A stretch of 35,822 bases of DNA from UHGV virus genome UHGV-1355336. One strand, written 5' to 3'. The DNA comes from a virus. The notes beneath the pieces are model-generated. The model had not been told where the DNA came from. It did not search any database and saw only the letters and a program-made list of their open reading frames with translations. Positions 1,765-30,932 of the stretch are shown here, one piece after another; the stretch's first letter is position 1; each line of letters begins with the position of its first letter. Position numbers and translations under genes: made by a program.

Positions 1765-4700
1765 ATGGGTAAAGGCAGCAGTAAGGGGCATACCCCGCGC
1801 GAAGCGAAGGACAACCTGAAATCCACGCAGTTGCTGAGTGTGATTGATGCCATCAGTGAAGGGCCGATTGAAGGTCCGGTGGATGGATTAAAAAGCGTGC
1901 TGCTGAACAGTACGCCGGTGCTGGACAGTGAGGGGAATACCAACATCGCCGGTGTCACGGTGGTGTTCCGGGCTGGTGAGCAGGAGCAGACTCCGCCGGA
2001 GGGATTTGAATCCTCCGGCTCCGAGACGGTGCTGGGTACGGAAGTGAAATACGACACGCCGATCACCCGCACCATCACGTCGGCAAACATCGACCGACTG
2101 CGCTTTACCTTCGGTGTGCAGGCACTGGTGGAAACCACCTCAAAGGGGGACCGGAATCCGTCGGAAGTTCGCCTGCTGGTTCAGATACAGCGTAATGGTG
2201 GCTGGGTGACGGAAAAAGACATCACCATTAAGGGCAAAACCACCTCGCAGTATCTGGCCTCGGTGGTGGTGGATAACCTGCCGCCGCGCCCGTTTAATAT
2301 CCGGATGCGCAGGATGACGCCGGACAGCACCACAGACCAGCTGCAGAACAAAACGCTCTGGTCGTCATACACCGAAATCATCGATGTGAAACAGTGCTAC
2401 CCGAACACGGCACTGGTCGGCGTGCAGGTGGACTCGGAGCAGTTCGGCAGCCAGCAGGTGAGCCGTAATTATCATCTTCGCGGGCGCATTCTGCAGGTGC
2501 CGTCGAACTATAACCCGCAGACGCGGCAATACAGTGGTATCTGGGACGGAACGTTAAAACCGGCATACAGCAACAACATGGCCTGGTGTCTGTGGGATAT
2601 GCTGACCCATCCGCGCTACGGCATGGGGAAACGTCTTGGTGCGGCGGATGTGGACAAATGGGCGCTGTATGTCATCGGCCAGCATTGCGATCAGTCGGTG
2701 CCGGACGGTTTTGGCGGCACGGAGCCGCGCATCACCTGTAATGCGTACCTGACCACACAGCGCAAGGCGTGGGATGTGCTCAGTGATTTCTGCTCGGCGA
2801 TGCGCTGTATGCCGGTATGGAACGGGCAGACGCTGACGTTCGTGCAGGACCGACCGTCGGATAAGGTGTGGACCTATAACCGCAGTAATGTGGTGATGCC
2901 GGATGATGGTGCGCCGTTCCGCTACAGCTTCAGCGCCCTGAAGGACCGCCATAATGCCGTTGAGGTGAACTGGATTGACCCGAATAACGGCTGGGAGACG
3001 GCGACAGAGCTTGTGGAGGACACGCAGGCCATTGCCCGTTACGGTCGTAACGTCACGAAGATGGATGCTTTTGGCTGTACCAGCCGGGGGCAGGCACACC
3101 GCGCCGGGCTGTGGCTGATTAAAACAGAACTGCTGGAAACGCAGACCGTGGACTTCAGCGTGGGTGCCGAAGGGCTTCGCCATGTACCGGGCGATGTCAT
3201 TGAAATCTGCGATGATGACTATGCCGGTATCCGCACCGGCGGGCGCGTGCTGGCGGTAAACAGCCAGACCCGGACGCTGACGCTCGACCGTGAAATCACG
3301 CTGCCATCTTCCGGCACCACGCTGATAAGCCTGGTTGACGGGCAGGGGAGTCCGGTCAGCGTGGAGGTTCAGTCCGTCACCGACGGCGTGAAGGTGAAAG
3401 TGAGCCGTGTTCCTGACGGCGTTGCTGAATACAGCGTATGGGGGCTGAAGCTGCCGACGTTGCGCCAGCGCCTGTTCCGCTGCGTGAGTATCCGTGAGAA
3501 CGACGACGGCACGTATGCCATCACCGCCGTGCAGCATGTACCGGAAAAAGAGGCCATCGTGGATAACGGGGCGCACTTTGACGGCGACCAGAGCGGCACG
3601 GTAAATGGTGTCACGCCGCCAGCGGTGCAGCACCTGACCGCAGAAGTCACCGCAGACAGCGGGGAATACCAGGTGCTGGCCCGCTGGGACACGCCGAAGG
3701 TGGTGAAGGGCGTGAGCTTCCTGCTTCGCCTGACCGTGGCAGCGGATGACGGCCGTGAGCGGCTGGTCAGCACGGCCCGGACGACGGAAACCACTTACCG
3801 CTTCACACAACTGGCGCTGGGGAACTACAGGCTGACAGTCCGGGCAGTAAATGCGTGGGGGCAGCAGGGCGATCCGGCGTCGGTATCGTTCCGGATTGCC
3901 GCACCGGCAGCGCCGTCGCGGATTGAGCTGACGCCGGGCTATTTTCAGATAACCGCCACGCCGCATCTTGCGGTTTATGACCCGACGGTACAGTTTGAGT
4001 TCTGGTTCTCGGAAAAACGGATTGCGGATATCAGGCAGGTTGAAACCACAGCCCGCTATCTTGGCACGGCGCTGTACTGGATAGCCGCCAGTATCAATAT
4101 CAAACCGGGCCATGATTATTATTTTTACGTTCGCAGTGTGAACACCGTTGGCAAATCGGCATTCGTGGAGGCTGTCGGTCAGCCGAGTGATGATGCATCA
4201 GGCTATCTGGATTTTTTCAAAGGCGAGATAGGGAAAACCCATCTGGCTCAGGAGCTGTGGACGCAGATTGATAACGGTCAGCTTGCGCCTGACCTGGCTG
4301 AAATCAGGACGTCCATTACGGATGTCAGCAATGAAATCACGCAGACCGTCAATAAGAAACTGGAAGACCAGAGTGCTGCAATTCAGCAGATACAGAAGGT
4401 TCAGGTTGATACAAATAATAACCTGAACAGCATGTGGGCTGTGAAGCTGCAGCAGATGCAGGACGGACGCCTTTATATCGCGGGTATTGGTGCCGGTATT
4501 GAGAACACCCCTGACGGCATGCAGAGTCAGGTGCTGCTGGCGGCGGACAGGATTGCGATGGTTAATCCTGCGAATGGCAACACAAAACCGATGTTTGTTG
4601 GTCAGGGCGATCAGATATTCATGAACGACGTGTTCCTGAAACGCCTGACGGCTCCCACCATTACCAGCGGTGGAAATCCGCCGGCATTTTCCCTGACACC

Positions 4701-5247
4701 AGACGGAAAGCTGACCGCTAAAAATGCGGATATCAGCGGTAATGTGAATGCAAATTCAGGGACGCTCAACAATGTCACGATTAATGAAAACTGTCAGATT
4801 AAGGGGAAACTGTCAGCCAATCAGATTGAAGGCGATATTGTCAAAACGGTCAGCAAGTCTTTCCCCCGCACGAACAGTTATGCCAGTGGCACCATCACGG
4901 TAAGAATCAGTGATGATCAGAAATTTGACCGGCAGGTCATGATACCGCCAGTGTTATTCCGCGGTGGTAAGCATGAGAATTTCAACAGTAATAACCAACA
5001 GTCATACTGGTATTCAACCTGCCGGTTAAGAGTGACCCGCAATGGTCAGGAGATTTTTAATCAGTCCACGACGGATGCTCAGGGCGTATTTTCCTCAGTT
5101 ATAGATATGCCTGCCGGACAGGGGACGCTGACACTGACATTCACCGTATCTTCATCAGGAGCGAATAACTGGACACCAACAACCAGTATCAGCGATCTGC
5201 TGGTTGTGGTGATGAAAAAATCCACAGCAGGTATCAGTATCAGCTGA
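1765..5247 (+). CDS. J: Tail tip host-specificity protein J (central tail fibre)
   Basis: 1160 aa; N-terminus [54 protein letters not shown] is lambda-J-like; fibronectin-like central repeats; C-terminal ~250 aa diverge from recalled lambda J. Confidence 0.9.
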
Positions 5248-5264
5248 ATTTTATAACCCAGAAC

Positions 5265-5290
5265 GGGCGTCAGAAATGACGCCTTTTTTA
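5265..5290 (+). terminator. Rho-independent terminator after J
   Basis: GGCGTCA-GAAA-TGACGCC hairpin followed by TTTTTT, 18 nt after the J stop. Confidence 0.6.
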
Positions 5291-5313
5291 TTGCAGAAAA
5301 GCGAGAGGTAATT

Positions 5314-5913
5314 ATGCGTAAACTTTATGCCGCCATTTTGTCCGCAGCCATTTGTCTGGCCGTATCCGGTGCGCCTGCATGGGCGTCTGAACATCAGTCC
5401 ACGCTGAGCGCGGGGTATCTTCATGCCCGGACGAACGTTCCCGGCAGTGATGATCTGAACGGGATTAACGTGAAATACCGTTATGAGTTTACGGACACAC
5501 TGGGGATGGTGACGTCGTTCAGCTATGCAGGAGACAAGAATCGCCAGATTACCCGTTACAGCGATACCCGCTGGCATGAAGATTCCGTTCGTAACCGCTG
5601 GTTCAGCGTAATGGCGGGGCCGTCTGTGCGCGTGAATGAATGGTTCAGCGCGTATGCGATGGCGGGTGTGGCTTACAGCCGTGTGTCGACTTTCTCCGGG
5701 GATTATCTCCGCGTAACTGACAACAAGGGGAAAAAGCACGATGTGCTGACCGGAAGTGATGACGGTCGCCACAGCAACACGTCTCTGGCGTGGGGAGCTG
5801 GCGTGCAGTTTAACCCGACCGAATCCGTGGCCATTGATGTCGCTTATGAAGGCTCCGGCAGTGGTGACTGGCGCACTGACGGGTTCATCGTGGGTGTTGG
5901 TTATAAATTCTGA
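5314..5913 (+). CDS. lom: Lom outer-membrane protein (Ail/Lom/OmpX family)
   Basis: 199 aa, signal peptide [24 protein letters not shown], beta-barrel pattern ending ...FIVGVGYKF; canonical position after J. Confidence 0.9.
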
Positions 5914-5967: not shown

Positions 5968-5977
5968 TGGGGTGAAT

Positions 5978-8900
5978 ATGGCAGTAAAAATTTCAGGTGT
6001 ACTGAAAGACGGCACAGGAAAACCGGTACAGAACTGCACAATCCAGCTGAAAGCAAAACGTAACAGTACCACGGTGGTGGTGAACACGCTGGCATCTGAA
6101 AATCCGGATGAAGCCGGGCGTTACAGTATGGACGTTGAGTACGGTCAGTACAGCGTTATTCTGTTGGTGGAAGGATTCCCGCCGTCACATGCCGGGACCA
6201 TCACCGTGTATGAAGACTCACAACCGGGTACGCTGAATGATTTTCTCGGTGCCATGACGGAGGATGATGCCCGTCCGGAGGCACTGCGCCGTTTTGAGCT
6301 GATGGTGGAAGAGGTGGCGCGTAACGCGTCCGTGGTGGCACAGAACACGGCAGCCGCGAAGAAGTCAGCCAGCGATGCCGGCACATCAGCCCGTGAGGCG
6401 GCAACCCATGCGACTGATGCTGCAGGCTCAGCAAGCGCAGCCAGCACGTCAGCCGGACAGGCCGCGTCGTCGGCTCAGTCAGCATCTTCCAGCGCAGGAA
6501 CGGCATCAACAAAGGCCAGTGAAGCATCGAAAAGTGCTGCTGCTGCAGAGTCCTCAAAAAGCGCGGCAGCTACCAGTGCCGCTGCGGCGAAAACGTCAGA
6601 AACGAATGCGGCAGCGTCACAACAATCAGCAGCCACTTCTGCATCCGCCGCGACCACGAAGGCGTCAGAAGCAGCCACCTCAGCCCGGGATGCGGCGGCC
6701 TCAAAAGAGGCAGCGAAATCATCAGAAACGAACGCATCCTCGAGCGCCAGTAGTGCCGCTTCCTCGGCAACGGCGGCAGGCAATTCCGCGAAGGCGGCAA
6801 AGACGTCTGAGACAAACGCCAGGTCTTCTGAAACGGCAGCGGAACAGAGTGCCTCAGCTGCGGCAGGCTCAAAAACAGCGGCTGCGTCGTCTGCCAGTGC
6901 AGCGTCAACAAGTGCCGGGCAGGCCTCAGCCAGTGCTAGCGCCGCCGGAAAATCGGCAGAAAGCGCCGCATCGTCCGCTTCAACAGCCACAACGAAGGCT
7001 GGCGAAGCCACTGAACAGGCCAGCGCAGCAGCGAGGTCTGCTTCCGCAGCGAAGACATCCGAGACGAACGCGAAAGCGTCGGAAACCAGCGCAGAATCCT
7101 CAAAAACGGCTGCCGCATCGTCCGCCAGTTCGGCGGCGTCATCGGCATCATCTGCGTCTGCTTCAAAAGATGAGGCGACCAGACAGGCATCAGCAGCGAA
7201 AGGCAGCGCCACGACGGCATCCACGAAGGCGACAGAGGCAGCTGGTAGTGCGACGGCGGCAGCTCAGAGCAAAAGTACGGCGGAATCCGCGGCAACGCGC
7301 GCCGAGACAGCAGCAAAACGGGCAGAGGATATTGCATCCGCCGTGGCGCTTGAGGATGCAAGTACGACGAAAAAGGGGATAGTACAGCTCAGCAGTGCGA
7401 CCAACAGTACGTCTGAAACGCTGGCGGCAACGCCAAAGGCAGTAAAATCAGCCTATGACAATGCAGAGAAACGTCTGCAGAAAGACCAGAACGGCGCTGA
7501 TATACCCGATAAGGGACGCTTCCTGAACAACATTAACGCGGTCAGTAAAACAGACTTTGCTGATAAGCGTGGTATGCGTTATGTGCGGGTTAACGCTCCT
7601 GCAGGTGCAACATCTGGAAAATATTACCCTGTTGTTGTTATGCGTTCTGCTGGCTCAGTAAGCGAACTGGCATCAAGGGTCATTATCACCACGGCAACGC
7701 GAACCGCAGGCGATCCGATGAATAACTGCGAGTTTAACGGATTTGTTATGCCTGGTGGCTGGACTGACAGGGGGCGTTATGCTTATGGCATGTTCTGGCA
7801 ATATCAAAACAATGAACGAGCCATCCACTCAATAATGATGAGTAATAAGGGCGATGATTTGCGCTCTGTGTTCTATGTTGATGGCGCTGCTTTCCCTGTT
7901 TTTGCGTTTATCGAAGATGGCCTGTCAATATCCGCACCTGGTGCTGATCTCGTTGTTAATGATACGACCTATAAGTTTGGGGCAACAAATCCGGCGACTG
8001 AATGTATCGCGGCGGACGTTATCCTTGATTTTAAGAGTGGGCGTGGTTTTTATGAGTCTCATTCGTTAATCGTTAACGATAACTTGTCGTGCAAAAAACT
8101 TTTTGCCACAGACGAAATTGTAGCGCGTGGTGGTAATCAGATTCGAATGATAGGTGGGGAGTATGGGGCATTATGGCGTAATGATGGCGCTAAAACTTAC
8201 CTGCTGCTTACCAATCAAGGTGATGTTTATGGTGGATGGAATACATTAAGACCGTTTGCTATTGATAACGCAACCGGCGAACTGGTTATTGGAACCAAGC
8301 TGTCTGCAAGTCTGAACGGTAACGCATTGACAGCAACAAAGCTGCAAACGCCAAGACGGGTTTCTGGTGTTGAGTTTGATGGTTCCAGAGATATTACTTT
8401 AACCGCCGCGCATGTGGCTGCTTTTGCCAGAAGGGCAACGGATACGTATGCCGATGCGGATGGGGGCGTTCCATGGAATGCCGAATCAGGCGCTTACAAT
8501 GTCACCCGCTCTGGCGACAGCTATATTCTGGTTAACTTCTATACCGGAGTCGGAAGTTGCCGGACCTTGCAGATGAAGGCACATTACAGAAATGGAGGTC
8601 TGTTCTACCGTTCCTCAAGAGATGGCTATGGTTTTGAGGAAGACTGGGCAGAAGTTTATACCTCGAAAAATCTTCCACCAGAAAGCTACCCAGTCGGCGC
8701 ACCAATCCCGTGGCCATCAGATACCGTTCCGTCTGGTTATGCCCTGATGCAGGGGCAGACTTTTGACAAATCTGCTTACCCGAAACTTGCAGTTGCTTAT
8801 CCGTCAGGCGTGATCCCTGATATGCGTGGCTGGACGATTAAGGGCAAGCCCGCCAGTGGTCGTGCCGTATTGTCTCAGGAACAGGACGGCATTAAATCGC

Positions 8901-9328
8901 ACACCCACAGCGCCAGCGCATCCAGTACGGATTTGGGGACGAAAACCACATCGTCGTTTGATTACGGCACTAAATCCACGAATAACACTGGTGCGCATAC
9001 CCATAGTGTTAGCGGTACGGCTGCTTCAGCCGGTGCACATACCCATTCGATGACATTTGTTTCAGGTGGTTCCAGTGGTGCTCCGGGAAGTGGATCACCT
9101 GATTATTCTAAATACAGTGTTAACACTTCTTCTGCAGGCGCTCATACGCACTCTGTATCGGGTACTGCTGCAAGCGCAGGTGCACACGCACATACTGTCG
9201 GTATTGGTGCTCATACGCACTCCGTTGCGATTGGTTCACATGGACATACCATCACCGTTAACGCTGCTGGTAACGCGGAAAACACCGTCAAAAACATCGC
9301 ATTTAACTATATTGTGAGGCTTGCATAA
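5978..9328 (+). CDS. stf: Side tail fibre protein (Stf/StfR-like) with Ala/Ser-rich repeat rod and His-rich C-terminal domain
   Basis: ATG at 5978 gives [27 protein letters not shown]... (lambda Stf-like N-terminus); ~330 aa of low-complexity A/S/T repeats with recurring KTSETNA units; C-terminus has repeated GAHTHS / HxH motifs. Confidence 0.85.
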
Positions 9329-9912
9329 TGGCATTCAGAATGAGTGAACAACCACGGACCATAAAAATTTATAATCTGCTGGCCGGAACTAATGAATTTA
9401 TTGGTGAAGGTGACGCATATATTCCGCCTCATACAGGTCTGCCAGCAAACAGTACCGATATTGCACCGCCAGATATTCCGGCAGGCTTCGTGGCTGTTTT
9501 CAACAGTGATGAGGCATCGTGGCATCTCGTTGAAGATCATCGGGGTAAAACGGTTTATGACGTGGCTTCCGGCGACGCGTTATTTATTTCTGAACTCGGT
9601 CCGTTACCGGAAAATGCCACTTGGTTATCCCCGGAAGGGGAGTTTCAGAAGTGGAACGGCACAGCCTGGGTGAAAGATGCAGAAGCAGAAAAACTATTCC
9701 GGATCCGGGAGGCGGAAGAAACAAAAAACAGCCTGATGCAGGCAGCGAATGAGCATATTGCGCCACTTCAGGATGCTGTAGATCTGGAAATCGCAACGGA
9801 GGAAGAAACCTTGTTGCTGGAAGCCTGGAAAAAGTATCGGGTGTTGCTGAACCGTGTTGATACATCAACTGCACCTGATATTGAGTGGCCTACGAACCCT
9901 GTCAGGGAGTAA
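9328..9912 (+). CDS. tfa: Tail fibre assembly chaperone Tfa
   Basis: 194 aa, start overlaps stf stop (TAATG); [54 protein letters not shown]... is typical Tfa. Confidence 0.85.
9751..9867 (+). repeat. Direct repeat copy 1 (3' part of tfa); copy 2 lies in the downstream tfa fragment
   Basis: [30 protein letters not shown] coding stretch recurs near-identically at ~10800-10913. Confidence 0.6.
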
Positions 9913-9966
9913 TCATTGGGATTATGCCGCAGCACGTCTTAAGCAAGAACGTGCTGCGGTTGGATG

Positions 9967-10635
9967 CTATTTTTTCCCTGAAGCGGAAAACATTACTACA
10001 GTACCTTGAACCTTGGTTTTAACATTCTCGAAATGCTCTGAGAGTATATGTGTTAAGCCTTCTTCGGAATCTTTTGTGTTTGAAAAGATACCTTTCTGAT
10101 TGTAAATGCGCATCAGTTTTTGACCGAAGCTATTGTGCACAACTCCATCGCCAAGAATTGTGGCTCCGTATAGAGTTCCATCGTCAGTTAAGGCCTGCGC
10201 CGCATTGCGTATTACACAGCTTTTTGTAGATATATTTCCAGGCAGGCAGTGAAGAAGGTAAAACATGGAAATGGAATCAAATTGACCATGTAACGCCGCG
10301 GGATAAGGTTCAAAAACATCATGGCTAATTTTATGTTTAATTTTTGATTCCCCAGCCCTTGTAGATGCCGCGTTCAGGCTAGCTTCGTTCAAATCCATTA
10401 AAGATATCAGACTACTCTCAGGTACGTGAGTAAGGTAAAAACCAGTTCCAACACCAATATCCAGATGGTTGTTACCTAAATGTTCCAGAAAGTGTGGAAG
10501 AAGGTGTTCCTTTGTAGGACATCCCCATGCAAGCCGATTTGATACTCCCAAAACCCACCAGTCATAAAGCTTTAGGGTAAGTGGTGTGTAAATTTTAGCC
10601 CCATCATCTGTGTTTTTTTTCATTAATTTCACCAT
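9967..10635 (-). CDS. Class I SAM-dependent methyltransferase (small-molecule/protein type); resembles K-12 DLP12 ybcY but apparently intact
   Basis: 222 aa with motif I LDIGVGTGFYL; sits between tfa and a tfa fragment, the recalled ybcY position. Confidence 0.6.
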   Translation of the reverse strand: MVKLMKKNTDDGAKIYTPLTLKLYDWWVLGVSNRLAWGCPTKEHLLPHFLEHLGNNHLDIGVGTGFYLTHVPESSLISLMDLNEASLNAASTRAGESKIKHKISHDVFEPYPAALHGQFDSISMFYLLHCLPGNISTKSCVIRNAAQALTDDGTLYGATILGDGVVHNSFGQKLMRIYNQKGIFSNTKDSEEGLTHILSEHFENVKTKVQGTVVMFSASGKK

Positions 10636-10691
10636 GTTATAGTTTTATTTGTGAATTAAATCAATTATGGCGATGAATTACAAGGGGTTAA

Positions 10692-10997
10692 ATGCTGCCG
10701 CAGCATAGCGATATTGAAATAGCCTGGTATGCTTCGATACAGCAGGAGCCGAATGGCTGGAAGACCGTCACCACACAGTTCTACATCCAGGAATTCAGTG
10801 AGTATATTGCGCCACTGCAGGATGCTGTAGATCTGGAAATCGCAACGGAGGAAGAAAGATCGTTGCTGGAGGCATGGAATAAATATCGGGTGTTGTTGAA
10901 TCGAGTTGATACATCAGTAGCTCTGGGTATGAAGCTGTTTGTAACTCATGTTACAGTAACAGCCATTACTATCTCGAGGGTGCAAAATGTATATTGA
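10692..10997 (+). pseudogene. Tail fibre assembly gene fragment (tfaX-like remnant)
   Basis: Only the C-terminal Tfa-homologous block ([39 protein letters not shown]) is present; N-terminal part unrelated; track start is a non-ATG codon. Confidence 0.6.
10800..10913 (+). repeat. Direct repeat copy 2 (tfa 3' homology)
   Basis: Near-identical to 9751-9867 at nucleotide level (tattgcgccacttcaggatgctgtagatctggaaatcgcaacggaggaagaaa). Confidence 0.6.
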
Positions 10998-11124
10998 TTT
11001 GATATTTTATAAATTTACTTCGAATCTGGCACGTCAACTTTTGATTAAAGTAATATCAGTTTTCGGCGAAAAAAGGACCGTGTACATGAGACGATTTCAT
11101 ACAAGAATAACAAAAATATGAATA

Positions 11125-11160
11125 TGCTCCCAATGCAATATATGTTTTGCATTGGGAGCA
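11125..11160. terminator. 14-bp perfect-stem hairpin 20 nt downstream of the hydrolase gene
   Basis: TGCTCCCAATGCAA-tatatgtt-TTGCATTGGGAGCA; AT-rich flanks on both sides. Confidence 0.45.
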
Positions 11161-11180
11161 AATAGCGGAATATTTTGAAA

Positions 11181-12665
11181 TTATTGTATTTCTGCTTCAG
11201 AATTTCCTGGGCAGTATATATTTTCTGGTTTTTGTGGAGTGATCAGGTGATGTACAACTGCTTTATCTACACATAAATTAACTCCGGTGAGAGCTAATGT
11301 ATGCCCATCACCATTTATTGTTAGTAACGGGCTGGAAAATTTCTCTGCCATCTTACGGGCATTAATCCAGGGCGTTGTTGGGTCGTATTTGTGTGCTACA
11401 AACAGTAAACCAGAGGGCAGAACAGTATTTTTCAGGCGAGTTTTGTTCAGGTCGCTATGTATTGGCCATAATTCACAAAAATCAGGTGAATCGGAACGTC
11501 CATTGTCAAAGTTAATAGCCGGGAAGGCATTCGCAAGAGCGTCTTTTCGGGATTTTCGCTCTTCTGGTGTTAATTGCTCATCCCCCTGATCTACACAGAG
11601 GATTACCCCCGAAGCATCGCTTGACTCTTCTGAGGCTATCGGAGCACTGAGCGCAGTTTCAATTTCATTACTGACAATCCCCTGAGAGAACTGGCGTATG
11701 GCAGTTGCAAGGGTTGGCCATGATGAACGCCATAGCAGAAGGTCTGTTGTTAATGATATGAGTTCATCTGAAGATATATTTTCTCCCTTACTGTCTAATA
11801 AAGGTTTGTGATGTAATTTTGATAATAGCTCATGGAACTGAGTTATTGCCTTATCTCTGTCTGAAGAAAGCGGGCAACTTTTTGTACGCGCACACCAGGA
11901 TGCAAAGCGATCAAACGTTTCCTGATAACTCTGTGCCTGTTTGAGTTGCCATGTGAAGTTGTCCTCCAGGTCATCGATATCGACGACTCCATCAAGAACG
12001 ATAGATCTTACGTTGTAGGGAAAACGTTCTGCATATAAGGCTGCAATTTGAGTTCCATACGAATACGCCACGGCTGTCAGTTGTTTATCCCCCAAGGCTT
12101 GCCTAATACGATCAATATCGTATACAGCCTCGTTAGAGCCGATATGGCGAATGACTTCGGCCCCGGTATTATGGATACAGGCATTAATTTTATTTAATAC
12201 TTGTTGCTTTTCGGTTATGTTTTCCTGAGTCTCTGTATCTGATTGCCGGCAGTTTATTGTCGGAGTGGACTGTCCGACGCCTCGAGGATCAAATCCAATA
12301 ATATCCCATGACTCACGAAGATTTGTGACTGGCCAGTCAAAGTTAATATAAGGATTTATGCCTGGTAACCCGGGACCACCACTTATTATCAGGATACTTC
12401 CTTTATGCTTGCTTTTTGCCGGCAATTTTGTCAACGCTAGTTTGACTTGTGATTTTTTTTCATAAGAAGCATCTCCGCCTGTGTCTGTATATTTTAATGG
12501 AACAGACAAATAACCACATAGTAAGTCAGGAGACGGTTTTTCCTCACCAAACCAGTGGTTGAATTGACTGGCCATACAGGATTGCCACTGTATCTGCTGG
12601 GCAGATACGGTTACTGGTAGAAGTAACGTTAAAACAACTTTGAAATGAGTAATTATTTTTCGCAT
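11181..12665 (-). CDS. Secreted alpha/beta-fold hydrolase (peptidase/esterase-like), function unknown
   Basis: 494 aa; N-terminal signal peptide MRKIITHFKVVLTLLLPVTVSAQ; nucleophile-elbow-like VAYSYGT; AT-rich cargo context. Confidence 0.6.
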   Translation of the reverse strand: MRKIITHFKVVLTLLLPVTVSAQQIQWQSCMASQFNHWFGEEKPSPDLLCGYLSVPLKYTDTGGDASYEKKSQVKLALTKLPAKSKHKGSILIISGGPGLPGINPYINFDWPVTNLRESWDIIGFDPRGVGQSTPTINCRQSDTETQENITEKQQVLNKINACIHNTGAEVIRHIGSNEAVYDIDRIRQALGDKQLTAVAYSYGTQIAALYAERFPYNVRSIVLDGVVDIDDLEDNFTWQLKQAQSYQETFDRFASWCARTKSCPLSSDRDKAITQFHELLSKLHHKPLLDSKGENISSDELISLTTDLLLWRSSWPTLATAIRQFSQGIVSNEIETALSAPIASEESSDASGVILCVDQGDEQLTPEERKSRKDALANAFPAINFDNGRSDSPDFCELWPIHSDLNKTRLKNTVLPSGLLFVAHKYDPTTPWINARKMAEKFSSPLLTINGDGHTLALTGVNLCVDKAVVHHLITPQKPENIYCPGNSEAEIQ

Positions 12666-12851
12666 TGTGTCTCTGAATATCGGAATAAAGATAAGATTTG
12701 AATATATTGAGGTCTTGTGTTGCGGTAAGAGATTACACGTTATGACATAGGTTAAATGCTTACAAAATTAGTGGATATTGCCTACTTGTAACTGTAAACA
12801 AATTCCCCGGGGTTATACAATACCACCGGGGAGAAAATCTGGTTAACTTCG

Positions 12852-13805
12852 TTAAAAGGTGTACTTAAGACCAGCAGTAGTGATGAAGTTATAGTTTTCT
12901 ATGCCTGCACCATTTTTGCTGTAGTCTGAAGTGTTATCATTGTGATCATAAAGTGAAGTATTACCTTTTTTATTCGTAACCCGATTCCATGCGCCTTCAA
13001 CATAAACCTTTGCGTTAGGTGTTACGTAATAACCTGCATTGACTGCAACAGAATAGTAATTTTGGTCTTTGACTTTACTGCGATAAGTGATTCTTTTTCC
13101 TGGGTCATAGTGCTCATCGTTATCAGATGCTTCCACCCAGCCGCTGTATTTAAATGTGCCACCTAGCTCAAAATCTTCATAACGATAACTTCCAGTCAAG
13201 CCAATGTAGGGCATTTTAAAACGTTGTTTGTAGCCGATTGCTCTTTCTCCATTCGGGAAGGAGCCGATATCATCTCTGAATCCCTCCTCAGAACTGTAGA
13301 TATAGGAACCACCTCTGGCTGTAAAGCTATAACGGCTTTCCTGATATCCGGCCATGAGTCCCAGGCGGTAATTGGGTTCGTTGAGGAGCCAGCCTTTGAT
13401 ATTCAGATCAAATTCGTTGGCATAATTGAGTTGTGTATCAGGGTGCCTACTTTCATCTGTCCAGGTTCCGGGGTTACTGGAATCCATCCAGTCCTGATCG
13501 ACCATATTGCCACCTCGGCTGTCGAGAGTAGTCCAGCCCGCAGCCCCAATAGATATCTGGGGCATCAAATCCCAATTAATTGCACCTTTAATAATTGCAG
13601 CGTTATTGAATTTCCAGTCGAGTTGACTGACTTTTCGGCCTCCTTCTTCAGCTAGATAAACGCGCTCTTTTGTTTTTCCGCTCAGAGTTCCAAGACTAAT
13701 GTCCGCATTTATGTTGTCAGGAGTAAACGATATAGTCTCGGTAGAAGCAAAAGAGCTGATCGCAATAGGGGTTGTCAGAACTATTCCCAGAAGTTTCGCC
13801 CGCAT
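12852..13805 (-). CDS. ompT: Outer membrane protease OmpT (omptin)
   Basis: 317 aa; matches recalled E. coli OmpT over its whole length apart from a few substitutions (signal peptide MRKLLGIVLTTPIAISSFA..., ends ...ITTAGLKYTF). Confidence 0.9.
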   Translation of the reverse strand: MRAKLLGIVLTTPIAISSFASTETISFTPDNINADISLGTLSGKTKERVYLAEEGGRKVSQLDWKFNNAAIIKGAINWDLMPQISIGAAGWTTLDSRGGNMVDQDWMDSSNPGTWTDESRHPDTQLNYANEFDLNIKGWLLNEPNYRLGLMAGYQESRYSFTARGGSYIYSSEEGFRDDIGSFPNGERAIGYKQRFKMPYIGLTGSYRYEDFELGGTFKYSGWVEASDNDEHYDPGKRITYRSKVKDQNYYSVAVNAGYYVTPNAKVYVEGAWNRVTNKKGNTSLYDHNDNTSDYSKNGAGIENYNFITTAGLKYTF

Positions 13806-14227
13806 AAAAGTTCTCCATTCAATCGTTTTAATGATTGAATATGTATTTTTTATATCTAACTTAATGAGTCAATCACATATTGCTCCACTGTTTATATTTT
13901 GTTTAGTATTGAATGATTATCACAATGCGCTATCTGTTTTTGGTTTAATTATCTGTTATTATTTTATGTTGCGGTTTTACTGTGTGGTTTTTTATGCTTT
14001 TGTGGTGTTTTTATCTATTTAAGCGCCATGCCTTTAAAGGCATATAAGCGAAAATAGCATGAGGTTTATCCTCAATTGCTATGTTTTTTAGTACAAAAAA
14101 GAGGGACAAAACTGAGACACATAAGGCCTCACAATGGCTTGCAAGGCTTTACATGTTTTGAGGTAGTGGGACGTGTGAGCGCAGAGATGGCGCGGTAATT
14201 TGTTGACTTAAAATGTCGTTCTAGGAA

Positions 14228-14272
14228 CTTCTAAGTCGTGGGCCGCAGGTTCGAATCCTGCAGGGCGCGCCA
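14228..14272 (+). other. Phage attachment core: 3' terminal 45 nt of tRNA-Arg(UCU) (argU type); not a complete tRNA gene
   Basis: CTTCTAAGTCGTGGGCCGCAGGTTCGAATCCTGCAGGGCGCGCCA matches the recalled argU anticodon loop to CCA end; 5' half of the tRNA absent; integrase stop lies 16 nt downstream. Confidence 0.75.
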
Positions 14273-14287
14273 TTACAATTCAATCAG

Positions 14288-15451
14288 TTACGCCTTCTTT
14301 ATATCCTCCATAATTCCACAGTGGGACATATTTGGGACATTATCACCAAAAATGTCGTCTATTTTCCTTGCATGCTCTGTCAAATGATTAGGCGCAAGGT
14401 GAGCATACCTACGAACCATTTCTATGGACTCCCATCCGCCCATTTCCTGAAGCACAGATAATGGGACGCCTGACTGGATCAGCCAGCTTGCCCAGGTGTG
14501 TCTGAGGTCATGGAAACGGAAATCTTCAATTCCTGCACGACGACAAGCTGATAGCCATGATGTCTTGCTGTCGATGCGCATCTTCCTGACCGCAGGCGTT
14601 GATGTTCCATCTGCTCGCTTAGCCGCCTTGGTATGTACAAACACCCATTTGTGATGCTTGCCTATTTGATCACGCAACACTTTACAGGCGGTATCGTTCA
14701 GCGCCACACCAATGGCGCGGTTTGATTTGCTCTCTTCTGGATTCACCCAGGCAACTCGTCGCTGCATGTCGATTTGTTGCCATTCCAGATTTATGATGTT
14801 CGACTTTCTCAGACCAGTTGCCAGCGCAAACTTGACGACAGATTTCAGTGGTTCGGGGCACTCATCAATAAGGCGTTTTGCTTCCTCCTTTTCCAGCCAT
14901 CTGACTCGCTTGTTTCTGACCGCTGGTATCTTGATGACAGGCGCTTTTTCCAGCCACTTCCAGTCGCGTTCTGCAGCACGGAGAATGGCCTTTATCATGG
15001 CAAGATGCTTTGCCTTTGTCTGAGTTGATACTGGCTTTGGTTCATAAACAGGCGGTTCTTTACCTTTCCTGATGGCGGCCTGAACTTTCTGTTTCCATAT
15101 TTCTTTCGTCTTTCTGTTATGCATTCTGCTTACAGCAGAGTAAATCTTTGCCTCCGAGATATCTTTAAGCCTTATACCCTCAAAATGTTCAAGCCAGAAC
15201 TCAATCCGGCTTTTATCTGAATCGAGAGATTTTTTATCAGCTTTTTCCTCAAGCCATCTTAGGCAGGCCTCTTCAAAAGTGACATCAGGTAAATCCCCTA
15301 GCTTTTCTACTCGCCAGAGTTCTGCTTTTCGCTTGTCGTGCAACTCCTGAGCTTGCCGCTTGTCCTTTGTGCCAAGAGATTCCTTAATTCGTTTCCCGCC
15401 CGGGAGCGAATACGAGGCATACCATATTTCATTTCTGCGGAAGAGTGACAT
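14288..15451 (-). CDS. int: Tyrosine integrase (IntD/DLP12-like, P4-integrase family)
   Basis: 387 aa; [35 protein letters not shown]...; C-terminal catalytic R..HDLRHT..Y region; adjacent to tRNA-derived att core. Confidence 0.9.
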
Positions 15452-19148: not shown

Positions 19149-19781
19149 CGAGAATTATGTTCGTTCTAAATCATGGTTATTGTATTACAGACACTTGACT
19201 ACTGTTGAAACATCAGATTCTAGTGCTTCAATTTGTGCTCTATTAGCTTGGGTCGCCATACCATAGATAGTGTAACTCTTATGCTGCAGCCTACTTAAAG
19301 GGCATCCCTCATGGTTTATTATTGCTGCAAGAGTATTACCATCTTTGACATTTTGAACTCTCTCGAAAGTAGCCACATTTGTGAACAGATGAGGATGTGT
19401 ATTTAACAGGTCATCCGTGATTCTTTTGATCTCTTCTGCATGTGATTTGAATGCTTTTGCTGCATCACTTTCATTAGTTCTTGAGCGGTTTTGTACGAAA
19501 AGGTGTAGTTCAGGTAGTTCGATAAGGTTTTGCTTTGCTTCTTTGTTGAAATCTAAGAACATTTCATCTTGTTCTGACTTGTCAATAGACACTCCATAAA
19601 TAAGTTTAACAAGGTTTTTTATTCCGCGAATTGATGCAGCATCGGCAGTGCAAGGGATAATTATTCTATTTGCCGCGACTACTCCCAATTCTGTGTAGCT
19701 GGCAAAACTTGGATTACAATCAATAAAAAATGTTTTTGCTCTGTCAGAAATGTTTTTATCGGCTTCAAAAGATGCTATTAG

Positions 19782-20976
<1,195 letters not shown>

Positions 20977-21703
20977 TTAGATCTACCAGCAAAGATCGGC
21001 TTTTCTTCCATGCTTCTTTTACTGGGGATGAGCCAATGTGAGATATTAAGCGTGAACAGATATCAAGATCGACATCACCAGGAAGAATATATAAGTTCTC
21101 TGGCATTTTTGTATTAACATCATGGGCTCGTACAAAGTAAGAAGATTCATTTCCTAAACGAGACAAAGGAGATTTGCTAAAACGCTCCTTGATATAACCT
21201 GCGATTGTAACATTTCTGTCTCGCAATTTATTTAGATTTTCTTCCCCGGTACCATTGCCACCAAGAATAATTTCTGAAACGTTTGATTGAGGGCATGAGT
21301 CAATAACCACAACATCTTGATCCGGATGAGATATAGCAAACTCAACGGCAAGATTATATGTAAGAAAAGTTTTTCCTACACCACCTTTGTTGTTCCATAC
21401 TAAATATTTTGTATTGGTGGAAATCATATCTGCTACCCCATCTGTCGCTTCAGTACGTTCATTAATCATTATCGTATCCTGTTGTATAGAATTGTCTATT
21501 ATTTATGTTTTATTTTGGTTTTTTTTGTGTTAGTAACGCACCCAAAGATAACATATGGTCTTTATCTTTTCTTACTTAGGGTAACAGCTCAGTGTTAATC
21601 CATTTTTATGGACCAATGTGCCAAATAAAATTTGTATAAAGATTTTCTATCCTTATCTTTTATCATCTGTGCTCGTTTGCTTTAACGATTGCTAGATGCC
21701 TAA

Positions 21704-22444
21704 TTAAAGTCGATTATATTTAATCGACTCATGAATCAGTGCCTTACCCATAACATAAAGCTGATCTTGCGACTTCTCATCAATGTACCATTTCTCATAG
21801 GCGGGGTTATCCGAAAGAACAGCTAGTTTGTTGCCTTGCATTTGTAGACGTTTAACATGGAAAGTCTTACCGTAAACGAAAGAGTAAACTCCATCAGTCT
21901 GGAAGTGGCGAACGGAAATGTCGACAAACAATCGATCCCCGGAAACAAGAGTTGGGGACATACTATCTCCATTTACCGTCATAACTTTTATATCATTCTG
22001 AGAACGGTTTCCGAAAAGAGAACGGGCATGTTCAGTTGTGAACTCAATGGCGTAGAGCACATCAACATAGTCTGAAAGCATATAGGTCCCAGGTCCTGCG
22101 CTAACGCTAAGATCCAAAACTTCTATCCTGTATACATCGGGCTTTGTTGGATTGGGGATGCTTGCCATTTCCTTACATTCCTCTCTATCTCCAACACCAT
22201 ATTCTAGATATGAAGCTGATACTCCAAGAGCCAACGCAAGTTTACTCATGACAGAGACACGTGGCTTCGCTGCGCCGATTGTGTATCGACGAGCCATTTC
22301 ATATGTAACGCCCACAAGACTTTTGAGTTGAGTGACAGAGATTCCTTTGATTGTCATCAATTCGTTTAGTCTCTTGGCGAAATCTGGATACTTCTGTTCT
22401 TCTACCATAGGTAGAAGATTACTCACATCACACGCGCTAGTCAT
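21704..22444 (-). CDS. CI-like prophage repressor (HTH plus S24 LexA-type autopeptidase domain); start codon uncertain (22444 or 22408)
   Basis: C-terminal VNGDSMSPTL...K motif pattern of S24 peptidases; N-terminal HTH; divergent to a cro-like gene; no SD before candidate ATGs. Confidence 0.75.
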   Translation of the reverse strand: MTSACDVSNLLPMVEEQKYPDFAKRLNELMTIKGISVTQLKSLVGVTYEMARRYTIGAAKPRVSVMSKLALALGVSASYLEYGVGDREECKEMASIPNPTKPDVYRIEVLDLSVSAGPGTYMLSDYVDVLYAIEFTTEHARSLFGNRSQNDIKVMTVNGDSMSPTLVSGDRLFVDISVRHFQTDGVYSFVYGKTFHVKRLQMQGNKLAVLSDNPAYEKWYIDEKSQDQLYVMGKALIHESIKYNRL

Positions 22445-22446
22445 TT

Positions 22447-22484
22447 CTATTTTAAGTAGTTGCAATTTGCTATTTTAAGTAGCA
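22447..22484. promoter_or_regulatory. Right operator region: two copies of CTATTTTAAGTAG spaced 23 bp; second sits in 17-mer TGCTATTTTAAGTAGCA
   Basis: Direct reading of the cI-cro intergenic region; 17-mer matches the OL candidate at 14 of 17 positions. Confidence 0.5.
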
Positions 22485-23735: not shown

Positions 23736-24683
23736 ATGAGCACTAAATTAACCGGCTATGTATGGGATGGTTGCGCTGCGTCAGGCATGAAGTTATCCAG
23801 CGTGGCAATTATGGCCCGCCTGGCTGATTTCAGTAATGACGAAGGTGTGTGCTGGCCATCAATTGAAACCATTGCCCGCCAGATTGGCGCGGGGATGAGC
23901 ACCGTCAGAACGGCTATCGCACGGCTGGAAGCAGAAGGCTGGTTAACGCGTAAGGCGCGTCGCCAGGGTAACCGCAATGCGTCGAATGTTTATCAGCTTA
24001 ACGTTGCGAAGCTTCAGGCAGCGGCATTTTCTCAACTGTCAGATTCTGACCCGTCAAAATCTGACGCATCAAAATCTGACCAGTCAAAATTTGATGCGTC
24101 GAAATCTGGCAAAAAAGCGGGTTTTCACCCGTCAGAATCTGGCGGGGATCCGTCAGTAAAATCAAAACATGATCCGTCAGATAAAAAAACTTCTCGTCCG
24201 GACGCTTCGCAACCGGACACGCAGACGGCTGAACAGGAGTTTTTAACTCGCCATCCTGATGCGGTTGTATTCAGCCCTAAAAAGCGCCAGTGGGGAACGC
24301 AGGATGATTTGACCTGCGCACAGTGGCTCTGGAAAAAAATCATCGCCCTGTACGAGCAGGCCGCCGAATGTGACGGCGAGGTGGTTCGTCCCAAAGAACC
24401 GAACTGGACAGCATGGGCAAACGAAATTCGCCTGATGTGTGTGCAGGATGGTCGTACTCACAAACAAATCTGCGAGATGTACAGCCGCGTCAGCCGCGAT
24501 CCGTTCTGGTGCCGTAACGTGCTCAGCCCGTCGAAGCTGCGGGAAAAATGGGATGAGCTTTCCCTGCGCTTATCGCCGTCCGTCAGCACGTACACCGAAA
24601 AACGCGAAGACCCGTACTTCAAAGCCAGTTACGACAACGTGGACTACAGCCAGATCCCGGCAGGATTCAGGGGGGGATCATGA
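23736..24683 (+). CDS. Replication initiator (lambda O-like) with internal origin iterons
   Basis: 315 aa; N-terminal winged-helix-like region; central DPSKSDASKSDQSKFDASKSG encoded by tandem 15-bp repeats; position after cro/cII-type genes. Confidence 0.65.
   Translation: MSTKLTGYVWDGCAASGMKLSSVAIMARLADFSNDEGVCWPSIETIARQIGAGMSTVRTAIARLEAEGWLTRKARRQGNRNASNVYQLNVAKLQAAAFSQLSDSDPSKSDASKSDQSKFDASKSGKKAGFHPSESGGDPSVKSKHDPSDKKTSRPDASQPDTQTAEQEFLTRHPDAVVFSPKKRQWGTQDDLTCAQWLWKKIIALYEQAAECDGEVVRPKEPNWTAWANEIRLMCVQDGRTHKQICEMYSRVSRDPFWCRNVLSPSKLREKWDELSLRLSPSVSTYTEKREDPYFKASYDNVDYSQIPAGFRGGS
24039..24188. repeat. Iteron array (candidate ori): ~5 tandem 15-bp units of consensus CCGTCAAAATCTGAC plus 3 spaced copies and an A-rich tract
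   Basis: Repeats read directly: ccgtcaaaatctgac / gcatcaaaatctgac / cagtcaaaatttgat / gcgtcgaaatctggc / ccgtcagaatctggc ... followed by gataaaaaaac. Confidence 0.65.
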
Positions 24684-25168
24684 GTCTTTTGAATGACGTT
24701 CAGAAATTCATTGAAGCCCATCCGGGGTGTACTTCCGGAGACATTGCGGATGCTTTTGCAGGTTACTCACGACAGCGCGTTCTGCAGTCAGCAAGCAAGT
24801 TACGTCAGAGTGGGCGTGTGGCTCACCGTTGTGAAGGGGATACACGCAGACATTTCCCGCGGCTGACTGAGATACCGCAGGAGCCGGAACCGCAACCAGT
24901 TCGTGAATCCAGACCTGTGCGCAATTTCTATGTCGGCACTAACGATCCCCGGGTGATTTTGTGCCTGACCCGCCAAGCGGAAGAACTGGAGTCCAGGGGC
25001 TTATACCGTCGTGCTGCAACGGTGTGGATGGCGGCATTCCGTGAAAGCCACTCCCAGCAAGAGCGAAACAATTTTCTTGCGCGTCGTGAGCGGTGTTTAC
25101 GGAAAAGCAGCAAGCGCGCTGTATCGGGTGAAGAGTGGTATCTGTCAGGGAATTACGTGGGGGCTTAA
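24680..25168 (+). CDS. Hypothetical nin-region protein
   Basis: 162 aa, start overlaps the O-like stop (ATGA). Confidence 0.45.
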   Translation: MSLLNDVQKFIEAHPGCTSGDIADAFAGYSRQRVLQSASKLRQSGRVAHRCEGDTRRHFPRLTEIPQEPEPQPVRESRPVRNFYVGTNDPRVILCLTRQAEELESRGLYRRAATVWMAAFRESHSQQERNNFLARRERCLRKSSKRAVSGEEWYLSGNYVGA

Positions 25169-29870: not shown

Positions 29871-30932
29871 ATGAAAAACACTGTAAAAATAAACAGTATT
29901 GATTTAATCAACGCTGATTGCCTGCATTTTATTCAGTCCCTGCCTGATGATTCCATTGACCTGATTGTTACCGATCCGCCTTACTTCAAGGTGAAACCCA
30001 ACGGTTGGGACAATCAGTGGAAAGGGGACGAAGATTACCTTAAGTGGCTGGACCACTGTCTGGCCCAGTTCTGGCAGGTGTTGAAACCTGCCGGAAGCCT
30101 TTACCTGTTCTGTGGGCATCGCCTGGCATCTGATATTGAGATCATGATGCGTGAACGTTTCAACGTGCTTAACCATATCATCTGGGCGAAGCCGTCCGGA
30201 CGTTGGAATGGGTGTAATAAAGAAAGTCTGCGCGCATATTTTCCTGCCACAGAGCGCGTTCTGTTTGCTGAACATTACCGGGGGCCATATCGCGGCAAAA
30301 GTGACGGCTATGTGGCAAAAGAAAGGGAACTCAAACAGCACATAATGGCACCGCTGATATCGTATTTCAGGGATGCTCGTGCCGAACTGGGTATAACGGC
30401 AAAACAAATTGCCGAAGCCACAGGTAAGAAAAATATGGTTTCCCACTGGTTTGGTGCCAGTCAGTGGCAGTTGCCGAATGAGGCTGACTACCGGAAGTTA
30501 CAGGCACTGTTTTCCCGTATAGCGGCAGAGAAGTTTCAGGAACAACAACTGGAACAACCACACCACCAGTTGGTGGCATCTTATGATTCACTGAATCGCA
30601 AATATTCTGAATTGCTGGATGAGTTTAAATCTCTCCGGCGCTATTTCTCCGTATCAGTCTCCGTGCCTTATACCGATGTCTGGATGCATAAACCCGTTCA
30701 GTTCTACCCGGGTAAACATCCGTGTGAGAAACCGGCGGATATGCTCAGGCAAATAATCAATGCCAGTAGTCGACCCGGCGATCTGGTTGCTGATTTCTTT
30801 ATGGGATCCGGTTCCACAATAAAAGCAGCAATGGCGCTGGGGCGTCGGGCGTTAGGTGTTGAGCTTGAGACAGAGCGGTTTAATCAGACCATCCAGGAAA
30901 TCAGTATGTTATCAGCAAATACAATTTTGTGA
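29871..30932 (+). CDS. DNA methyltransferase, beta-class (motif IV DPPY before motif I FxGxG); likely N6-adenine, orphan
   Basis: VTDPPYF near the N-terminus and DFFMGSGST near the C-terminus; no adjacent restriction endonuclease candidate. Confidence 0.8.
   Translation: MKNTVKINSIDLINADCLHFIQSLPDDSIDLIVTDPPYFKVKPNGWDNQWKGDEDYLKWLDHCLAQFWQVLKPAGSLYLFCGHRLASDIEIMMRERFNVLNHIIWAKPSGRWNGCNKESLRAYFPATERVLFAEHYRGPYRGKSDGYVAKERELKQHIMAPLISYFRDARAELGITAKQIAEATGKKNMVSHWFGASQWQLPNEADYRKLQALFSRIAAEKFQEQQLEQPHHQLVASYDSLNRKYSELLDEFKSLRRYFSVSVSVPYTDVWMHKPVQFYPGKHPCEKPADMLRQIINASSRPGDLVADFFMGSGSTIKAAMALGRRALGVELETERFNQTIQEISMLSANTIL

Follow-up and report, generated by a model that had tools for sequence, protein, structure and literature searches.

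We analyzed the virus genome UHGV-1355336, a 35,822-nucleotide stretch of DNA (hereafter, the window), with a focus on positions 9967-13805. Three minus-strand genes lie here between the tail fibre genes and the attachment (att) core: a gene for an S-adenosylmethionine (SAM)-dependent methyltransferase, a gene for a 494-residue alpha/beta hydrolase, and ompT, which encodes an outer-membrane protease of the omptin family. The open reading frame list and the family scans agree on this layout and on its coordinates, as they had been given in an earlier note on this DNA, which was made from the sequence alone and described the region as AT-rich cargo carried next to att. Base composition bears out that description: GC content is 40.9% in the cargo (9913-14227), compared with 55.2% in the tail genes and 48.6% in the whole window, and GC content at third codon positions is 0.35 in the methyltransferase gene and likewise 0.35 in the hydrolase gene. 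The position next to att is also as claimed, the cargo being followed by a 47-bp core identical to tRNA-Arg and then by the integrase gene. What goes beyond earlier annotation is the assignment of the hydrolase to the family of Mycobacterium tuberculosis Hip1 and its pairing with an omptin gene. The features of the region are as follows:

9328-9912, plus strand: tfa, tail fibre assembly gene, the last phage structural gene ahead of the cargo (Pfam Caudo_TAP, 1e-44, full length)
9736-9867, plus strand: left copy of a 132-nt direct repeat, at the tfa 3' end, 86% identical to 10785-10916 (repeat search and blastn)
9967-10635, minus strand: intact class I SAM-dependent methyltransferase gene, 222 amino acids, ybcY orthologue (Pfam, PHROG, AlphaFold2)
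10692-10997, plus strand: tfa remnant, tfaX-like, which contains the right repeat copy, 10785-10916 (partial Caudo_TAP match)
10922-12801, no strand: segment substituting for the appY segment of the K-12 prophage DLP12 (blastn against MG1655)
11097-13923, minus strand: mobile ompT-hydrolase block, with putative promoter, ompT, hydrolase gene, and terminator (edges of plasmid and O157 homology)
11125-11160, minus strand: terminator-like hairpin with a 14-bp stem, 21 nt past the hydrolase stop codon (terminator scan and RNA fold)
11181-12665, minus strand: gene for a Hip1/TAP-like serine alpha/beta hydrolase, 494 amino acids, predicted to be exported (Pfam, phmmer, AlphaFold2, Foldseek)
12804-12832, minus strand: GC-rich hairpin 20 nt past the ompT stop codon, then AUUUGUUU (RNA fold, conservation across versions)
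12852-13805, minus strand: ompT, outer-membrane aspartyl protease (omptin), 317 amino acids (Pfam, NCBIfam, K-12 identity, catalytic residues)
13845-13872, minus strand: sigma-70-like promoter match 5' of ompT, TTGACT-16-AAAAAT (consensus scan)
14228-14274, plus strand: att core corresponding to the tRNA-Arg (argU) 3' end, in attP (phage attachment site) configuration (47/47 identity)

The hydrolase matches two Pfam domains, Abhydrolase_1 (PF00561, 3.1e-33, residues 91-460) and the TAP-like Abhydrolase_4 (PF08386, 9.4e-16, residues 386-485). Among PDB sequences, phmmer detected M. tuberculosis Hip1 (Rv2224c, 'carboxylesterase A'; 7sfm, 8e5w, and 5ugq) with E = 1.6e-51 over residues 21-480. The AlphaFold2 model, built with 21 homologues, has a pLDDT of 86.9 and a pTM of 0.87; Foldseek ranked the Hip1 crystal structures 8e5w/7sfm/5ugq first (TM 0.75-0.80), then TnmK1/K2, and then remoter prolyl aminopeptidases. 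The weak matches to the hydrolase in NCBIfam were likewise prolyl aminopeptidases; this database has no specific family for either of the two cargo enzymes, hydrolase and methyltransferase.

Hip1, a serine protease of the cell envelope with additional esterase activity, is kin to the tripeptidyl peptidases (TPP) of Streptomyces (PMC4022732). Its catalytic triad consists of S228, D463, and H490 (PMC4022732). In the phmmer alignment (chain offset 41), these residues and T466 correspond to S202, D428, H455, and T431 of the hydrolase, and PDB titles name the inhibitor-bound serine of Hip1 and a studied mutant among the aligned residues. All four positions are invariant in the alignment of 21 homologues, which reaches Nocardia and Mycobacterium, as are the GGPG motif (residues 96-99) and six cysteines; four further cysteines are near-invariant, for a total of ten. 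Hip1 has 11 cysteines and 5 predicted disulfides (PMC4022732). Inspection by eye of the N terminus, MRKIITHFKVVLTLLLPVTVSA followed by QQ, revealed MRK, a hydrophobic stretch, and a cleavage site between VSA and QQ, with no lipobox. We read residues 1-22 as a probable Sec signal peptide, which predicts export, and the low confidence of the AlphaFold2 model for residues 1-18 fits a signal peptide.

The hydrolase is thus best described as a predicted exported member of the Hip1/Streptomyces tripeptidyl peptidase family. With Hip1 (Rv2224c, CaeA) and S. lividans TPP A/B/C (SlpD/SlpE) it shares full-length homology, the fold, the Ser-Asp-His triad, the equivalent of Thr466, the GGPG motif, and approximately 10 conserved cysteines, and, if the predicted export holds, the status of an exported envelope protein. 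On the other hand, its identity to these proteins is only 27-28%, it has AYSYG instead of GYSYG at the nucleophile, and it is set apart by a Gram-negative host, a location on mobile elements, and an omptin neighbour. Hip1 cleaves GroEL2, whereas the hydrolase has no known substrate. Hydrolases of the Hip1/tripeptidyl peptidase type with a TAP-like C-terminal domain belong to MEROPS family S33.

The assignment of the neighbouring gene is straightforward. Its product matches Pfam Omptin (PF01278, 2.8e-130) and NCBIfam NF008222 (707.8 bits against a cut-off of 537) and is 98.7% identical in amino acid sequence to K-12 OmpT. The catalytic residues Asp83, Asp85, Asp210, and His212 (mature numbering) are all present, at precursor positions 103, 105, 230, and 232. 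The presence of ompT on DLP12-type prophages is textbook knowledge, and its placement in the window as phage-borne cargo agrees with the finding of the same block in isolated phages and in IMG/VR viral contigs.

An omptin gene followed by a hydrolase gene in the same orientation was found in three diverged versions, namely phage ompT, F-plasmid ompP, and the omptin of ColV-like plasmids. In the classical F plasmid, ompP is followed by an alpha/beta hydrolase gene, and many IncF plasmids, pBCE049 among them, are arranged alike; approximately 166 plasmids carry a form of the hydrolase with 60-80% identity. In ColV-like IncF plasmids, omptin and then hydrolase genes are located beside iro genes. 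The plasmid loci resemble the phage locus in the presence of a hydrolase of approximately 495 amino acids and of the same post-omptin hairpin; they differ in being plasmid-borne and in their hydrolases and omptins being 76-96% and 70-92% identical, respectively, to those of the phage. More precisely, amino acid identity between the phage and a ColV-like plasmid is 95.5% for the hydrolase and 92.1% for the omptin, and between the phage and the F plasmid it is 76.4% and 70.8%, so that the order of relatedness is the same for both genes. The ratio of nonsynonymous to synonymous substitution rates (dN/dS) is 0.11-0.13 for the hydrolase, at a synonymous divergence (dS) of up to approximately 1.1, and 0.07-0.15 for the omptin; dS of the pair reaches 1.1-2.5. 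The hydrolase has therefore remained functional throughout the divergence of the omptins. In IMG/VR contigs with enough upstream sequence, ompT is directly upstream of the hydrolase gene in all cases (18/18).

The limits of the pair are also shared. Positions 11097-13923 of the window align with the IncF ColV-like plasmid pFHI_NMBU_03_1 at 92% identity over 2830 bp, and homology to the O157 prophage Sp8 stops at 13918, near the plasmid-shared edge at 13923. The block between these edges therefore begins a short distance 5' of the promoter match and ends shortly after the hydrolase terminator. The hairpin at the 3' end of the hydrolase gene (11125-11160) has a folding energy of -25.8 kcal/mol (z = -5.8; 0/200 shuffles as good). 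The GC-rich hairpin behind ompT (12804-12832) is kept in all four versions compared, the phage, the ColV-like, and two F-type ones, and K-12 homology breaks directly after it, at 12802. The latter hairpin, placed between the two genes, probably acts as an attenuator or as a terminator that is leaky. A consensus scan detected no promoter-like match in the intergenic region, and in the F plasmid, where the spacer is approximately 85 nt shorter than in the phage version, only approximately 45 nt separate the hairpin from the hydrolase ATG. In microarray experiments on O157 Sakai, ECs1662 and ECs1663 (ompT) fall in one expression cluster, and each decreases by approximately 2.5-2.7 log2 upon entry into stationary phase (PMC2241611). 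Comparison with the Sakai annotation identified ECs1662 as the hydrolase gene. These observations fit a two-gene unit with a leaky internal terminator, in which the omptin and hydrolase genes would be co-transcribed.

The earlier note had given ybcY as a pseudogene in K-12 and appY as the occupant of the hydrolase position there, and both statements proved right. In MG1655, the right end of DLP12 is annotated as tfaD, ybcY (pseudogene), tfaX, appY, and ompT. We located the ybcY lesion as a deletion of 2 bp in the A-run at codon 5, with which the ATG of M5, the start in most homologues, is lost too. The window aligns with DLP12 at 97.0% identity over 9474-10921 and at 96.4% over 12802-14274; in blastn alignments, homology breaks at 10921/10922 and resumes at 12802, and 1880 bp (10922-12801) are found in place of the 1529-bp appY stretch of K-12. 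The two elements share the argU att site, gene order, and orientation, and their sequences flanking the exchanged segment are 96-97% identical at the nucleotide level. They differ in this segment (1.5 kb with appY in DLP12, whose right end reads tfaD-ybcY-tfaX-appY-ompT-attR, and 1.9 kb with the hydrolase gene in the window), in ybcY, which is intact in the window, and in their state: DLP12 is a remnant, whereas the window element is a complete-looking phage in attP configuration. Downstream of the omptin gene, the hydrolase gene is the conserved partner, so that the presence of appY in K-12 looks like a derived state. The region has several traits of a moron: it lies between tfa and att, its GC content is 41% compared with 55%, its allele varies (hydrolase, appY, or neither), and the block is also present on plasmids. 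The suggestion that the hydrolase gene is an alternative moron holds in the sense that it is an alternative to appY; it is, however, not a free-standing moron. The AppY paper does not discuss the alternative hydrolase allele.

To what extent this cassette is common was assessed in 5426 complete E. coli genomes, where the hydrolase segment, counted at a coverage of at least 80%, is present in 1226 (23%), the appY segment in 827, and at least 80% of window positions 9300-14400 in 1064. In the E. coli loci examined, the context of the hydrolase gene was always a prophage or a plasmid, which speaks against both findings that the earlier note had named as grounds for giving up its interpretation, a common core-genome protein with a conserved chromosomal context and a lack of phage linkage in other genomes. 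Lineages of uropathogenic E. coli (UPEC) have neither the hydrolase nor the appY segment (genome matches; PMC6854850). The cassette is present in the isolated phages 2G7b, ev243, PhiR26_1, PhiR30_1, PhiR29, PhiR49, and Turner, and PHROGs lists all three cargo proteins in families that have no assigned function. In O157:H7, this cassette terminates a lambdoid prophage near minCDE, which in Sakai is Sp8 with ECs_1656 (methyltransferase), ECs_1662 (hydrolase), and ECs_1663 (ompT). Sp8 and phages 2G7b, ev243, and PhiR26_1 carry it at 98.7-99.3% identity and with the genes already annotated; Sp8 differs from the window in its chromosomal site and in an ISEc8 element between the tfa remnant and the hydrolase gene. 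Thus, the cassette is ordinary lysogenic-conversion cargo, already known and annotated not only in O157 Sakai and isolated coliphages but also in roughly one in four complete E. coli genomes.

We found no study of the hydrolase in the literature and nothing relevant on phages 2G7b or ev243. The gene that Desloges et al. (2019) described 186 bp downstream of ompT in cystitis isolate 6 is given there as 'ymcE, a putative cold shock gene' (PMC6854850). Since this spacing equals that between ompT and the hydrolase gene in the window (12665 to 12852), 'ymcE' is probably this hydrolase gene under a wrong name, to judge from spacing alone.

Two further E. coli loci show what else can happen between tfa and att. 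In a prophage of O157:H7 Xuzhou21 (locus 2885-5098), genes for a Mn catalase, two ferritin-like proteins, and a general stress protein are located between tfa and the methyltransferase gene, and ISEc8 is located between the tfa remnant and the hydrolase gene, as annotated in Sakai Sp8; the tfa-att interval is therefore a repeated landing site for cargo. At argU of E. coli EPSSH018, the DLP12-type remnant consists of a truncated integrase gene, IS3, a tail-fibre fragment, tfa, an intact methyltransferase gene, the hydrolase gene, and ompT, which suggests that the cargo is kept while the phage decays.

The methyltransferase is detected by four Pfam models, PF08242 (Methyltransf_12; 37.6 bits against a cut-off of 30), PF13489, PF13649, and PF08241 (Methyltransf_23/25/11). 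Its glycine-rich SAM motif, D-I-G-V-G-T-G, is invariant in 18 homologues, and the AlphaFold2 model has a pLDDT of 89.5. In a fold search, the top folds were all SAM methyltransferases, the best of them of small-molecule or lipid kinds, as generic matches with TM of approximately 0.6, among them phosphatidylethanolamine N-methyltransferase, JHAMT, and natural-product O/C-methyltransferases; the best match, to a bacterial phosphatidylethanolamine N-methyltransferase, has 15% identity and is a lead rather than an assignment. The identity of a DNA N6/N4 methyltransferase, the usual kind of phage methylase, was considered and rejected, because both the catalytic motif (D/N/S)PP(Y/F/W) and the DNA-methylase domain are missing: the sequence contains no PP[YFW], and the Pfam scan gave no N6_N4_Mtase or MethyltransfD12 match. 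The protein belongs to PHROG phrog_2132; since this profile begins at residue 5 and most homologues have 218 amino acids, the true start is probably M5 (10623). In Salmonella and Enterobacter, homologues that share 56-65% identity with it are encoded by ordinary genes of the chromosome.

The methyltransferase gene is flanked by the 132-nt direct repeat formed by two tfa 3' ends and was therefore inserted separately from the ompT block. The tfa remnant, labelled partial or pseudo tfa in RefSeq genomes, covers only positions 75-121 of the 131-position Caudo_TAP profile (the C-terminal third). We also observed an Rfam IS009 match (214 bits, above the gathering score) at 9671-9869 on the plus strand, in the 3' part of tfa, which overlaps the left repeat copy. 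Within 9967-13805, Rfam had no match.

The explanation that accounts best for this locus, and which we hold with good confidence, is that it is b-region cargo of a DLP12-type phage, made of two modules, the second of which is a unit of ompT and the Hip1-like hydrolase gene. The element is a lambdoid phage that integrates at argU and carries two AT-rich accessory modules acquired separately. Module 1 encodes a cytoplasmic class I SAM methyltransferase of small-molecule or lipid type, placed between duplicated tfa 3' ends. Module 2, of 2.8 kb, would comprise the ompT promoter, ompT, a leaky hairpin, the gene for the 494-residue hydrolase, and a strong terminator. The hydrolase is predicted to be a Sec-exported, catalytically competent serine hydrolase with an alpha/beta fold, a TAP-like C-terminal domain, and the triad Ser202-Asp428-His455. 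In a lysogen, module 2 would be expressed as a lysogenic-conversion function: OmpT would cleave cationic peptides and proteins at the cell surface, and the hydrolase would attack peptides or esters in the periplasm or envelope. In K-12, appY has taken the place of the hydrolase half of this module. Anatomy, family membership, conserved pairing, and purifying selection are direct observations; export of the hydrolase, its co-transcription with ompT, its activity as a protease, and its functional cooperation with OmpT are what we infer from them. Module 2 is likely a two-gene envelope-protease moron, and the hydrolase may have the virulence or fitness role that the earlier note had proposed for it.

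The lead that emerges is a strongly constrained, predicted-exported relative of a tuberculosis virulence protease directly behind an omptin gene at phage ompT, at F ompP, and at one ColV-like locus. K-12 lacks this hydrolase, as do the UPEC lineages in which OmpT has mostly been studied. Should it alter phenotypes that depend on OmpT, for example resistance to antimicrobial peptides or the cleavage of recombinant proteins, this would matter for the biology of enterohaemorrhagic (EHEC) and Shiga toxin-producing E. coli (STEC) and for ompT as a virulence marker. A bolder version, which we consider improbable but worth stating, is that the two enzymes, omptin and Hip1-like hydrolase, work together as a module for envelope proteolysis that is traded as a unit by lambdoid phages, F, and ColV-like plasmids. 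At the cell surface, OmpT would initiate the endoproteolysis of cationic host peptides or proteins, and the hydrolase, as a periplasmic enzyme of tripeptidyl peptidase type, would then degrade or process the fragments or mature an envelope substrate, as Hip1 does with GroEL2. If so, the loss of the hydrolase to appY in K-12, the strain of OmpT biology, would explain why the partner has been overlooked.

Several points weigh against a two-gene protease unit. The nucleophile motif of the hydrolase is A-Y-S-Y-G rather than G-x-S-x-G. Whether Hip1 is a protease or an esterase was itself long argued over (PMC4022732), and for this reason the substrate class of the hydrolase is not readable from homology. 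The two microarray values stem from different growth transitions (PMC2241611), and the conserved ompT hairpin could be a full terminator, in which case the hydrolase gene would be an independent gene. No omptin gene adjoins the relatives of the hydrolase with approximately 52% identity that occur in Salmonella, in Budvicia, and on a plasmid of Serratia, so that the pairing goes back to one event in the mobile gene pool of the E. coli lineage. In a genome scan (tblastn; hydrolase alignment), 0/80 loci had an omptin gene, among the matches listed, which were mostly from Actinobacteria. Physical linkage alone could sustain the omptin-hydrolase pair.

The strongest alternative is that the hydrolase is an esterase, lipase, or lactonase that acts on small molecules and has no functional tie to OmpT, its adjacency reflecting hitch-hiking from one ancestral capture. 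We regard this as plausible, although less likely than not. On the one hand, phage records label the protein (by RAST) as 'putative lactone hydrolase, alpha/beta fold family', p-nitrophenyl butyrate is hydrolysed by Hip1 (PMC4022732), TnmK1/K2, which rank next among the structural neighbours, have a natural product rather than a peptide as substrate, and the homologues with approximately 52% identity are unlinked to an omptin. On the other hand, the closest characterised relatives, Hip1 and Streptomyces TPP A/B/C, are peptidases (PMC4022732), and the weak NCBIfam matches are prolyl aminopeptidases. Furthermore, the pair has stayed intact in phages and plasmids alike, with the same outer block edges and with purifying selection that extends to dS > 1.

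That the methyltransferase and hydrolase genes are decaying, functionless passengers and that only ompT matters is very improbable. In favour of this reading, K-12 has ybcY only as a pseudogene, UPEC lineages lack the hydrolase, and O157 has IS66/ISEc8 between the tfa remnant and the hydrolase gene. Even so, the hydrolase has a dN/dS of approximately 0.12, 1211/1262 hydrolase-segment records are at least 99% identical, and the protein clusters have 4002 (hydrolase, 90%) and 6589 (methyltransferase) members. The cargo persists in a nearly fully deleted prophage, and the hydrolase gene is transcribed in O157 (PMC2241611). This reading is contradicted by the selection and prevalence data and is disfavoured.

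Least probable of all, and only marginally below decay, is a role of the cargo, or of the hydrolase alone, in anti-phage defence or superinfection exclusion: the tail-fibre-to-att region is a known hotspot for morons and defence genes, and PADLOC model PDLC01094 ('C3a206, TAP-like protein') matches the hydrolase over its full length with E = 4.5e-57, but C3a206 is itself a candidate family, with a low score and three occurrences next to type III-D CRISPR loci of Actinobacteria (PMC6546367), so that the match reflects family membership only. This was the sole full-length PADLOC match of the cargo, which matched no validated defence model; ompT had no match and the methyltransferase a marginal one (E = 0.003), and an enzyme that is predicted to be exported by Sec and probably has five disulfides would hardly serve as a sensor or effector inside the cell.

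The state of the element is indicated by the sequence around att, where two more features frame the cargo:

5972-9328, plus strand: stf, side tail fibre gene, 1118 amino acids
14288-15451, minus strand: tyrosine integrase gene, intD-like (Pfam Phage_integrase, 5.5e-47)

Positions 14228-14274 are identical to the 3' end of the tRNA-Arg gene, and homology to chromosomal prophages ends exactly at 14274. Chromosomes continue with envY-ybcH-nfrA, whereas the window continues past att with the integrase gene (int); at chromosomal loci, int follows tRNA-Arg. ARAGORN detected no complete tRNA gene within the window, and the att site is therefore a 47-bp fragment and not a gene. The element thus shows all traits of a DLP12-type argU phage: an att core from the tRNA-Arg 3' end, a neighbouring tyrosine integrase gene, and prophages located between argU and envY/ybcH/nfrA. 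Beyond int in the window are early genes, genes for a cI-like repressor and cII, replication genes, RusA, Q, and DNA methylase genes, and lysis genes. The gene order of tail, cargo, attP, and int is the vegetative lambda order, and one IMG/VR contig has int (100% identical protein), ompT, hydrolase, methyltransferase, and tfa genes in the same relative arrangement; on these grounds, we favour an excised or vegetative phage form. Tandem prophages, in which the ompT-att-int junction would look identical, are less favoured.

Several minor observations concern the surroundings. On the minus strand at 14117-14156, 3' of int beyond the att core, an interrupted 17-bp hairpin with a U-rich stretch (fold z only -2.3) occupies the position of the lambda sib/tI retroregulator; in the prophage state, the hairpin would be separated from int. 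In stf, chiefly at approximately 6300-7400, several hundred residues consist of Ala/Ser/Thr-rich low-complexity repeats, which give rise to a strong AT skew (0.38-0.44) and to numerous spurious overlapping open reading frames.

Homologues of the hydrolase with approximately 52% identity have neighbourhoods of an envelope or accessory type. In Budvicia diplopodorum (locus 2832-5455), the homologue is beside genes for a Fic-domain protein and an EptA-type phosphoethanolamine transferase, and in Salmonella Eastbourne it is near MrpH-like fimbrial adhesin genes and a PIN/MazE toxin-antitoxin pair. A possible counterpart of the hydrolase, ArlB of the arlABC island, was rejected because it is an NAD-dependent epimerase; the PI-6 arlC/ompTp locus differs from the omptin-hydrolase loci in that its neighbours are the Mig-14-like ArlA and the epimerase ArlB.

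In the early region, an IS5-type transposase gene (19850-20842, plus strand; DDE_Tnp_1, DUF772) seemingly splits a minus-strand gene for a ParA/AAA_31-like ATPase (19185-21469) into an N-terminal part (20930-21469) and a C-terminal part (19185-19796). The split gene adjoins the cI-like repressor gene (21704-22465), the position of lambdoid exclusion or defence genes, and PADLOC gave a marginal Drt5 match only. A 162-codon open reading frame in the early-right region (24680-25168, plus strand) contains a PerC transcriptional-activator domain (9e-10). PerC/Pch-type regulators of prophages of EHEC and enteropathogenic E. coli govern the LEE island, and this open reading frame is possibly a second candidate for lysogenic conversion in the window. 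A 353-residue N6/N4 DNA methylase is encoded at 29871-30932 on the plus strand, downstream of the Q antiterminator gene (PF01555, 1e-41); this is the phage's real DNA methylase, separate from the small-molecule-type methyltransferase of the cargo. Between the DNA methylase gene and the lysis genes, Rfam detected STnc100 with 114 bits, likewise above the gathering score (31344-31532, plus strand).

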